The position numbers and the translations under genes were made by a program. 64,000 bases of DNA from Escherichia phage VB-EcoM-WM, in the sequence record PQ014731.1; one strand, written 5' to 3'. Positions 54,220 through 55,061 of this stretch are shown here, piece after piece. The notes below the pieces were generated by a model. The model worked only from the letters and a program-made list of their open reading frames with translations. It had not been told where the DNA came from and made no database searches. Numbering within the stretch: position 1 is the stretch's first letter; every line of letters begins with the position of its first letter.

Positions 54220-54285
54220 AAATAACATTGTGGCTTCGTGCAGCGATGCACGTCGAAAACCTCTTTAATTGACGGGAAGGCTAAG

Positions 54286-54314
54286 TTGACTTTTACACCT
54301 AAACATGGTAAAAG
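54286..54314 (+). promoter_or_regulatory. candidate promoter inside the intron, upstream of the HNH gene
   Basis: TTGACT, 17 nt, TGgTAAAAG; same architecture as the late promoters at 7883 and 13700. Confidence 0.4.
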
Positions 54315-54359
54315 CTCAATATGCTAATCCGCAGCGAAGACTAAAGGGGTGTAGTTAAA

Positions 54360-54866
54360 ATGGCTAGATCAGCTGATTATCACGGGTATACCGTGTTTGA
54401 TGATGGAACAATACCTTTATCGAAACGTGATCATACAACAATGTTTTGTTTTGATAATGGTCGAGGTTACCTTTGCGTGACCATGTTCATAGAGGGGAAG
54501 CAGTACACAAAAGGTGTCCACCACTTAGTTGCTGAGTGCTTTGTATCAAACCCTGATCCTGAAAGGCTCACATGGGTGAACCATAAGGATGGAAATAAGT
54601 ACAACAATGCATACTGGAACCTGGAGTGGACCACCCCTGGTGGAAATATCAAACACGCCTACGATAATGACCTCAGAGTAAGGCCAGTCGGCGAGTATAA
54701 TGCCAATGCTGTGCTGACCGAGGATGAGGTAATGGAGATTTGTGAACTGTTACAGAGCGGTCTACGACAATGTGAGATTAGGGATCTTGGGTATCCTTAT
54801 GAAACGGTCAGAGCCATAAAGCAAAGAAGACAGTGGAAACATGTCTCTAAAAACTACACCTGGTAG
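54360..54866 (+). CDS. intron-encoded HNH homing endonuclease
   Basis: 168 aa; HNH_3-type core VHHLVAECFVSNPDPERLTWVNHKDGNKYNNAYWNLEWTT; sits between intron elements Q and R. Confidence 0.75.
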   Translation: MARSADYHGYTVFDDGTIPLSKRDHTTMFCFDNGRGYLCVTMFIEGKQYTKGVHHLVAECFVSNPDPERLTWVNHKDGNKYNNAYWNLEWTTPGGNIKHAYDNDLRVRPVGEYNANAVLTEDEVMEICELLQSGLRQCEIRDLGYPYETVRAIKQRRQWKHVSKNYTW

Positions 54867-55061
54867 TAACGTTCAGAGACTATCGAAAGCATAGCTCCAA
54901 CATAGTTTGGTGTGAAGAAGCGAGTAGAGTAGGCCAGCAAGTGCGGTCGAAATGAGAGGTGCCTTGGTAACAAGGCAGTGAGATAGTCCGATCCATACGG
55001 GAAACTGTATGGCTATGCACGTAATGGTGCGGGGTAGCTTAACGACCTACCTGAACTATTG

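Follow-up and report, generated by a model that had tools for sequence, protein, structure and literature searches.

In a 64,000-nucleotide (nt) stretch of the genome of Escherichia phage VB-EcoM-WM (PQ014731.1; hereafter, the window), the gene encoding a family A DNA polymerase is interrupted by an 842-nt insertion. Judged by comparative evidence, this region is a genuine group I intron with a homing-endonuclease gene, and we regard it as established in kind. The P5 loop of the ribozyme contains an insertion that resembles a sigma-70 promoter in DNA and that folds, using the same bases, into a hairpin (P5a) in RNA. Our preferred reading, to which we give a probability of roughly 0.55, is that of a mobile group I intron with an endonuclease gene looped out of P6a and a P5 loop that would act as a dual hairpin and promoter cassette. 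In the copy carried by this phage, an internal promoter is plausible from related introns, and it would be a weak one.

Intron boundaries, ribozyme fold and endonuclease gene

The limits of the intron were obtained by comparison with the uninterrupted polymerase allele of phage slur12, which encodes ...RRIIYYHDEYQLQVP... and reads TATTACCAT/GACGAATAT across the site. In the window, exon 1 ends with ...TATTACCAT at 54219 and the intron starts with AAATAAC at 54220, while the intron ends with ...CTATTG at 55061 and exon 2 starts with GATGAG at 55062. The insertion is therefore exactly 842 nt long, and its boundaries cannot be shifted because the flanking bases differ at each junction. Exon 1 finishes with the codons for Tyr-Tyr-His, its open reading frame (ORF) continuing into the intron up to a stop at 54223-54225, and exon 2 encodes 117 amino acids (aa) plus a stop, beginning with Asp-Glu-Tyr-Gln. 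YYH-DEYQ is continuous in the intron-less alleles of slur12 and of a second locus (L135), so that exact removal of the intron restores the polymerase frame; the spliced junction is expected to read TATTACCAT/GATGAGTAC across 54219/55062. The insertion interrupts the gene in phase 0, separating the His codon from the Asp codon in the HDE catalytic motif (motif C). The initial annotation of this DNA, made from the sequence alone, had placed the intron at 54220-55061 and had it split these two codons, and the slur12 allele bears this out. The slur12-type intron-less site reads TATTACCATGACGAATATCAGCTT. We also observed that the first 12 nt of exon 2 contain four silent differences between intron-plus (GATGAGTACCAA) and intron-less (GACGAATATCAG) alleles, the following 100 nt being identical; the intron-plus phage FFH2 has only the first of the four. 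These silent changes could be a co-conversion tract or could protect the target site of the endonuclease.

By sequence similarity, the phage is an rV5-like coliphage (Vequintavirus) with FV3 as its nearest relative: positions 54100-55200 share 99.3% identity with Escherichia phage FV3 and 94-97% with about 30 further rV5-like phages. Three classes of relatives were distinguished over this interval, namely 32 records that align across its full length, records with about 535-590 bp aligned, which correspond to an ORF-less intron and include rV5 itself, and records with 259 bp aligned (1101 minus 842), which are intron-less. Intron-plus and intron-minus alleles coexist among close relatives. A scan of IMG/VR with the exact 14-mer TAACATTGTGGCTT returned 120 loci, only 4 of them true introns and all 4 near-duplicates of known phages, and querying IMG/VR with the exon 2 protein contributed one useful variant, L136.

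The Rfam group I model (RF00028) matched 54210-55011 from end to end, and its P, Q, R and S elements were all aligned. The score was 29.6 bits (E 2e-5 in a search of 1.1 kb and 0.0013 over the whole window), and no second match of this kind was found in the 64 kb. RF00028 has a curated gathering threshold of 50 bits; at curated thresholds Rfam gave no match in the whole 64-kb window, and the intron surfaced at relaxed thresholds only. We ascribe the sub-threshold score to the insertion of the ORF in P6. The alignment contains insertions of 510 nt in P6 and of 68 nt between the P7 5' strand and the P3 3' strand, and 64 nt of the latter (54883-54946) are P7.1/P7.2. ORF-less siblings score above the threshold: 75.6 bits for SYGMH1 (L002), 91.2 for TH18 (L005), 69.8 for L148 and 64.7 for L003. 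The SYGMH1 intron is 94% identical overall to the ORF-deleted window intron, and 98-99% identical across most of the ribozyme.

Covariation was assessed in 13 introns that share the polymerase insertion site and are 70-99% identical. After removal of the variable P5a, P6a/ORF and P7.1/P7.2 segments, the cores were aligned and a hand-drawn structure with P7 as a pseudoknot was scored. Standard pairs filled 97.4% of 779 cells and compensatory (both-side) changes were found in 26 of the 61 pairs, compared with 35-42% of cells and 0-7 pairs in slid controls in which the partner was moved by 1-3 columns. Each of P2, P3, P6, P7, P8, P9, P9.1 and P9.2 contains compensatory changes; P7 is 100% paired, with two compensatory pairs. 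In P1 (CCAUAA/UUGUGG), all six pairs are kept in the 13 introns, including the U54219.G54230 wobble at the 5' splice site. The initial annotation had predicted precisely such a wobble, between a U preceding the splice site and an internal guide gtgg, as well as the terminal G of the intron, which is present at 55061. The 5' strand of P4 is the P element, with a bulged A; Q is AATCCGCAGC at 54326-54335 and R is TTCAGAGACTA at 54872-54882. P6a was paired by hand (GGGUGUAG with CUACACCU, ACUA with UAGU) and has compensatory changes in Av-05 by the same means (GGUAUAG with CUAUACU, ACUUA with UAAGU). The presence of P7.1/P7.2 places the intron in an IA-like subgroup, and compensatory variants of these hairpins were seen by eye in relatives (GGCC/GGUC, GGCG/CGUC, GUGUGU/ACACAU). 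A covariance-model fold had been proposed as a check of P1-P9, and a consistent group I structure could indeed be built. The group I assignment with its P/Q/R/S core is thus upheld by the full-model Rfam match, the covarying P1-P9.2 fold and the ORF-less siblings that score above threshold.

The protein encoded in the intron matched I-HmuI (PDB 1u3e; E 3.7e-6), with the aligned motif VHxLVA...VNHKDGNKxNN...NLxW, and phrog_59 (HNH endonuclease; 6e-38). Pfam HNH_3 gave 17.7 bits on the 168-aa protein, under the cut-off of 24.8. The two matches, the first with the HNH residues aligned, point to an HNH homing endonuclease, in agreement with the earlier assignment, and the ORF (54360-54866) indeed lies between Q and R, in the P6 loop. 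In the five copies examined, the 168-codon ORF is intact, with synonymous divergence up to 0.2-0.9 and a pN/pS of 0.05-0.21. From this ratio we conclude that the endonuclease is under purifying selection and, therefore, must be expressed. The codons that end the ORF supply the 3' strand of P6a (54854-54866); by hand pairing, the Shine-Dalgarno sequence GGGGUG (54346-54351) pairs with part of them (CUACACCU, 54854-54861) and closes the helix. Translation of the endonuclease would probably be further limited by this pairing. In folds of the nascent RNA, we also observed that the P3 5' strand, CCUCUUU (54259-54267), pairs with the Shine-Dalgarno region, AAAGGGG (54343-54349); this pairing could be a transient competitor of both P3 formation and ribosome binding.

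Features of the intron-containing polymerase gene and of homologous introns (window positions, except for the last four rows, which are positions in the named loci)
Feature	Position	Strand	Basis or description
Exon 1, family A DNA polymerase	50827..54219	+	ORF list; junction with intron-less slur12 (L007)
Group I intron, 842 nt, IA-like with P7.1/P7.2	54220..55061	+	Intron-less allele, Rfam RF00028, covariation
P1	54216..54233	+	Exon CCAU + intron AA (54216-54221) with UU + guide GUGG (54228-54233)
P2 hairpin, CGUGCA-GCGA-UGCACG	54237..54252	+	Compensatory in 5/6 pairs, 100% of cells paired
5' strands of P3 (54259-54265), P4 (54270-54276) and P5 (54279-54281)	54259..54281	+	Rfam, covariation
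P5a hairpin in RNA	54285..54320	+	RNAfold of the P5 domain in 13 introns
Promoter-like element	54286..54314	+	-35 TTGACT (54286-54291), 17-nt spacer, -10 TAAAAG (54309-54314)
3' strands of P5 (54323-54325) and P4 (54328-54333, Q element); P6 5' strand (54334-54336)	54323..54336	+	Rfam, covariation
P6a 5' strand	54340..54354	+	Hand pairing with 54854-54866; holds Shine-Dalgarno GGGGUG
Endonuclease gene, 168 aa, I-HmuI-like HNH, looped out of P6a	54360..54866	+	1u3e, phrog_59, pN/pS
P6 3' strand (54870-54872), J6/7, P7 5' strand (54876, 54878-54882), R element	54870..54882	+	Rfam, covariation
P7.1/P7.2 peripheral hairpins between P7 and P3'	54883..54946	+	Rfam insertion; marks subgroup IA
P3 3' strand, P8, P7 3' strand (S element)	54954-54960, 54961-54976, 54984-54989	+	Covariation
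P9 with GAAA loop, P9.1, P9.2	54993-55012, 55017-55030, 55032-55052	+	Covariation
Omega G, 3' splice site	55061	+	Sequence; intron-less allele
Exon 2, DNA polymerase	55062..55415	+	Colinear with intron-less slur12 polymerase
Intron of PVP-SE1 (L008)	1501-2419
Intron of phiTE (L011)	950-1636
Intron of 2L372D (L010)	959-1698
Intron of CB7 (L149)	1950-2636

The P5 insertion in this intron and its homologues

The spacer of the promoter-like element ends with TGG (54306-54308), which provides an extended -10 TG at 54306-54307. With regard to sigma-70 promoters, the -35 TTGACT matches TTGACA at five of six positions and the 17-nt spacer is within the allowed 16-18; a transcript would be predicted to start at about 54319-54322. 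In RNA, the same bases make up P5a, a 36-nt hairpin of 12 bp with one bulged C and an 11-nt loop (about -10 kcal/mol).

Every endonuclease-bearing intron at this site was found to have a -35/-10 pair inside the P5 insertion. The pairs are TTGACT-17-TAAATG in L136, TTGATT-17-TATAAG in Av-05, TTGATA-17-TAAAAT in GEC_vB_MG, TTGATA-17-TAGTAT in LTH01, TTGATA-17-TAATAT in PBES 02, TTGACT-17-TAACAT in KLEP7, TTGACA-17-TATAAT in 2L372D and TS9, and TTGACA-16-TATGAT in phiTE and CB7; in PVP-SE1, TTGACA is followed by TATACT after 15 nt or by TACTAT after 17 nt, and the depositors of the PVP-SE1 GenBank record annotated the homologous site as a promoter. Nine lineages share an ungapped 29-nt frame, TTGAca-17-TAaaAt, in which TTGA and TA are invariant and the spacer is variable, with T as the last -10 base in 6 of the 9. 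The element is the top sense-strand promoter-like site in the introns of the window type and of GEC_vB_MG, LTH01, PVP-SE1, 2L372D and phiTE, and is not the top-scoring site in Av-05 or L136.

Comparison of the window with Av-05 showed 2 differences in the 12 hexamer positions and 10 in the 17 spacer positions (one-sided p = 0.028). The pairing register of P5a is shifted between the two introns and the linear spacing is still 17. TTGA is invariant while the P2 and P8 stems covary freely in the same introns. A fixed spacing with a shifting pairing fits better with a constraint acting on the DNA than with a purely RNA-level one. Treating the window and Av-05 P5a stems as compensatory position for position was considered and dropped, as their pairing registers differ.

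The cassette is present whichever endonuclease the intron carries: an HNH gene of 163-172 aa in P6a, a LAGLIDADG gene after P7 (PVP-SE1), or an HNH gene of 127-130 aa that begins in L5 and continues through P4' (phiTE, CB7, 2L372D and TS9), the first codons of which (MGNQQ) are the P4'/Q element itself. The introns of rV5, SYGMH1, TH18 and VLCpiM5b contain no ORF. Two of these four ORF-less lineages, the rV5 type and VLCpiM5b, have a minimal P5 that lacks both the element and P5a, and since their introns do without them, element and hairpin are dispensable for splicing. The distribution suggests that the element is associated with carrying an endonuclease gene. SYGMH1 and TH18, which belong to different clades, were seen to have similar short P6a hairpins (CAUCC-GAGA-GGAUG and CAUCCC-UAC-GGGAUG), each together with the P5a of its own clade, and FFH2 combines an rV5-type P2 with an FV3-type P5a; these introns look like recombinant mosaics.

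Within the window, two sites that each directly follow a terminator have a related composition: the one at 13700 is TTGACT-N14-TGGTAAAAT and the one at 7883 is TTGCGT-N14-TGGTAAAAT, corresponding to the predicted rV5 promoters P036 and P040, respectively. TTGACT-N14-TGNTAAAA occurs without mismatch at just two places in the 64 kb, 13700 and 54286, and the intron element is the same as the predicted 13700 promoter over TTGACT-N14-TGGTAAAA. The initial annotation had described the three sites as having the same architecture; the sites at 7883 and 13700 are real and post-terminator, but the -10 of the intron copy ends with G and theirs with T. Elsewhere, a run of near-consensus sigma-70 matches on the + strand was noted at 55231-57283, directly downstream of the polymerase gene and among short ORFs, examples being 55681 (TTGACA-17-TATTAT with TG, which is rV5 P224), 56445 and 56881 (TTGACA-17-TATAAT).

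Promoter, hairpin or both

According to our preferred reading, the ribozyme (P1-P9.2, with P7.1/P7.2) would excise itself from the polymerase pre-mRNA, restoring ...YYH/DEYQ...; both the structure and the essential role of the gene lead us to infer self-excision, and others have shown that the homologous CB7 intron splices. The HNH enzyme would nick or cut intron-less polymerase alleles in mixed infections, and repair would copy the intron in. In transcripts coming from upstream promoters, the P5 insertion would form a self-contained hairpin that leaves the core undisturbed, and at the DNA level it would be a sigma-70-type promoter giving the endonuclease its own transcript from about 54320, some 40 nt before the AUG. 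In this phage and in the closest clade any such promoter would probably be weak because its -10 (TAAAAG) ends with G, and such weakness would suit an enzyme normally held at low expression. The good -35 and the extended -10 TG may help it. On balance, we favour the descent of the P5a cassette from a working promoter that served the endonuclease gene; whether the TAAAAG version still fires in this phage we regard as close to a coin toss.

Several observations weigh against promoter activity here. The element departs from the -10 form TAnnnT, with a G at position 6 (-7). For recognition by sigma-70, a T in this place counts among the two -10 bases that matter most. A sigma-70 weight matrix gave the element 11.0 bits, compared with a mean of 11.5 for the best site in shuffled introns, and 67 of 100 shuffles scored at least as high; a shuffle-like score that we attribute to the final G. 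A stricter consensus promoter scan did not list the element at 54286. TTGACT-17-TGgTAAAAG is present at 54286..54314 as the initial annotation had it, but does not rise above shuffles by weight matrix. That G pairs, in P5a, with the C of TTGAC. The -10 of the close clades also ends with a G (TAAATG, TATAAG) that pairs with the hairpin C, and in these clades the RNA structure may be what is conserved. The ORF-less SYGMH1 and TH18 introns retain the element. In folding, a start at 54321 did not seem to expose the ribosome-binding site: the Shine-Dalgarno sequence has an unpaired probability of 0.14 in RNA that begins at the intron 5' end and of 0.15 in RNA from the predicted start. These values do not support a T4-like release of the ribosome-binding site by an internal start; the Shine-Dalgarno partner is the 3' end of the ORF, downstream of either start. 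Finally, a literature search found no Vequintavirus transcriptome, start mapping or reporter study.

These points lend weight to a serious, if less probable, alternative in which P5a is only an RNA hairpin, or the relic of a decayed promoter, and the endonuclease is made from read-through pre-mRNA via its own ribosome-binding site. The G at the critical last -10 position, the shuffle-level score, the stability of the 12-bp hairpin and the pairing of the G with a 5'-strand C all agree with it, as does the retention of the element in SYGMH1 and TH18. Moreover, L136 has also lost the extended -10 TG, and in phages PhiI and W31, which have an intron at the same site, the polymerase transcript is reported to contain the endonuclease gene (PMC3428280). 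Some hairpin is found in every lineage apart from the two ORF-less ones, whose introns show that it is unneeded for splicing. What a hairpin or relic accommodates poorly is the invariance of TTGA and TA within the 29-nt frame of nine lineages, in which the partner strand and the register of pairing do change and other stems of the same introns covary freely. The exact 13-base identity to the predicted 13700 promoter is likewise improbable by chance. The proposal that an internal promoter drives the HNH gene therefore draws its strength from the -35/-10 frame conserved in homologues, but not from this copy, with its G at -7 and its score within the shuffles.

A promoter of another kind was also considered. 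The element might belong to the 'late' promoter class of these phages (rV5 motif TggTAaAAtA; TGGTAAAATA), read by a modified host polymerase, and the endonuclease would then be expressed late, like I-TevI. TGGTAAAA is over-represented in the window (13 copies versus 3.5 expected), and the copies at 7903 and 13720 lie after terminators and upstream of genes, and they correspond to P040 and P036 among the predicted late promoters of rV5. Of the eight late promoters predicted in rV5, one (P055, TGGTAGAAGA) has a G at the ninth position as well, and T4 offers a precedent (PMC2988022). Nevertheless, the rV5 late motif is a MEME prediction only, with no factor identified, and the intron copy (TGGTAAAAGC) matches it at 8 of 10 positions, the last two being different. 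Counted by eye, the agreement falls to 6 of 10 in Av-05 and 5 of 10 in L136, and the distant homologues resemble ordinary sigma-70 promoters. We consider this late-class explanation improbable. Most of the 11 TGGTAAAA sites other than 7903 and 13720 appear to lie within coding sequence. Poorest of all, in our estimate, is the idea that the match is pure chance in an A+T-rich loop, without meaning in DNA or RNA: a single-site score inside the shuffle distribution is what it would predict, but the homologous recurrence in nine lineages, the stable hairpin and the exact identity to the 13700 pattern are very hard to reconcile with it.

Known introns, genome annotation and significance

Homologous ribozymes, 70-99% identical, occupy the same site in CB7, phiTE, PVP-SE1, Av-05, rV5 and the BASEL phages (Vequintavirinae and Aeromonas phages), and vary in their endonuclease cargo, some having no ORF. 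The intron of Pectobacterium phage CB7, located at the identical TATTACCAT/.../GATGAA site, splices in vivo as established by reverse-transcription PCR and sequencing (PMC7344957).

The T7-like phages PhiI and W31 contain polymerase introns that were reportedly described by Bonocora and Shub in 2004. Their insertion site, 881, is His881 of H881-D882-E883, the same His/Asp position as in the present intron. They are described as IA2 introns with an HNH ORF in P6a, and the site number follows E. coli Pol I (PMC3428280). The likeness is drawn from this description, and the hosts of these introns are unrelated podoviruses. Unlike the reading preferred here, that source describes no internal promoter and places the endonuclease gene within the polymerase transcript. 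A contig of Escherichia phage ECO104 4-5-2 (OR844702.1; L150) was examined as a T7-like homologue and rejected, as it has a different intron at a different polymerase site. On this unannotated 43-kb E. coli phage contig, a group I intron with a 180-aa ORF was observed at 846-1532 (51 bits, slightly over the Rfam cut-off) in a family A polymerase gene, after ...RLSASNP.

In phage T4, endonuclease promoters inside introns have been mapped by primer extension (PMC2988022, PMC3073962). As in the present intron, the T4 ORFs are looped out of P6, RNA structure hides their ribosome-binding site and their 3' ends contribute to P6a. The T4 promoters are, however, of the middle and late types and directly upstream of the ORF, whereas the present candidate is sigma-70-like and located in P5a. 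The T4 late start, inside the hairpin that hides the ribosome-binding site, frees that site, an effect absent from our folding of the present intron, and I-TevI and I-TevII are GIY-YIG enzymes whereas the enzyme considered here is of the HNH type. Bacillus phage SPO1 resembles the present case in combining a family A polymerase, a group I intron and an HNH enzyme (I-HmuI, which nicks), but its intron is at site 674 (PMC3428280), its ORF is in P8 (PMC3073962) instead of P6a, and its hosts are Gram-positive.

The BASEL records annotate the polymerase as a join, the intron boundaries having been set by comparative genomics according to their authors (PMC8594841), and in EmilHeitz the join consists of two pieces and has the same end point. 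The only introns mentioned in the rV5 paper, which proposed the late motif TggTAaAAtA, are in the terminase gene. In most GenBank records, including that of FV3, the intron is unannotated and the polymerase is split into two or three genes, with exon 2 as a 'hypothetical protein'. Two ORFs of the window, 55009-55269 and 55059-55415, begin in the 3' end of the intron, and one of them uses TTG as its start codon; the records of FV3, rV5 and other phages list them as genes of their own, named 'DNA polymerase' or 'hypothetical protein', and 55059-55415 is exon 2 read from a false start.

An additional interruption was noted in the polymerase ORF, which is 1132 aa long compared with 809-810 aa in FV3. 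At 52840-53808, a block of 323 codons (CYSGDTQIL...VAVCGN, then Cys) stands in place of one FV3 Gln (GDAH/Q/NNAEAY). The block starts with Cys and ends with Asn-Cys, as an intein would, and the comparison with FV3, on which this view depends entirely, suggests that the gene carries an intein as well as the intron. A Pfam search with the 1132-aa ORF returned no family or domain.

The intron is a known element and its mechanism is of a known kind; what is new, to a modest degree, is the promoter signature found family-wide in a ribozyme hairpin. Once the intron is recognised, the gene model of an essential enzyme is corrected. If the promoter is active, the endonuclease would be uncoupled from transcription of the polymerase, as in T4, and this intron family would represent a second, independent case of such uncoupling, here with the promoter built into a ribozyme hairpin, a useful and incremental addition. 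A more speculative extension, which we hold only tentatively, is that the P5 loop is a resident dual-coded cassette that stays with the ribozyme while three types of endonuclease exchange at three places. If that were true, the intron would be a ready-made expression site for incoming endonuclease genes, and in the E. coli Vequintavirus clade the G at -7 would have lowered the activity of the promoter.

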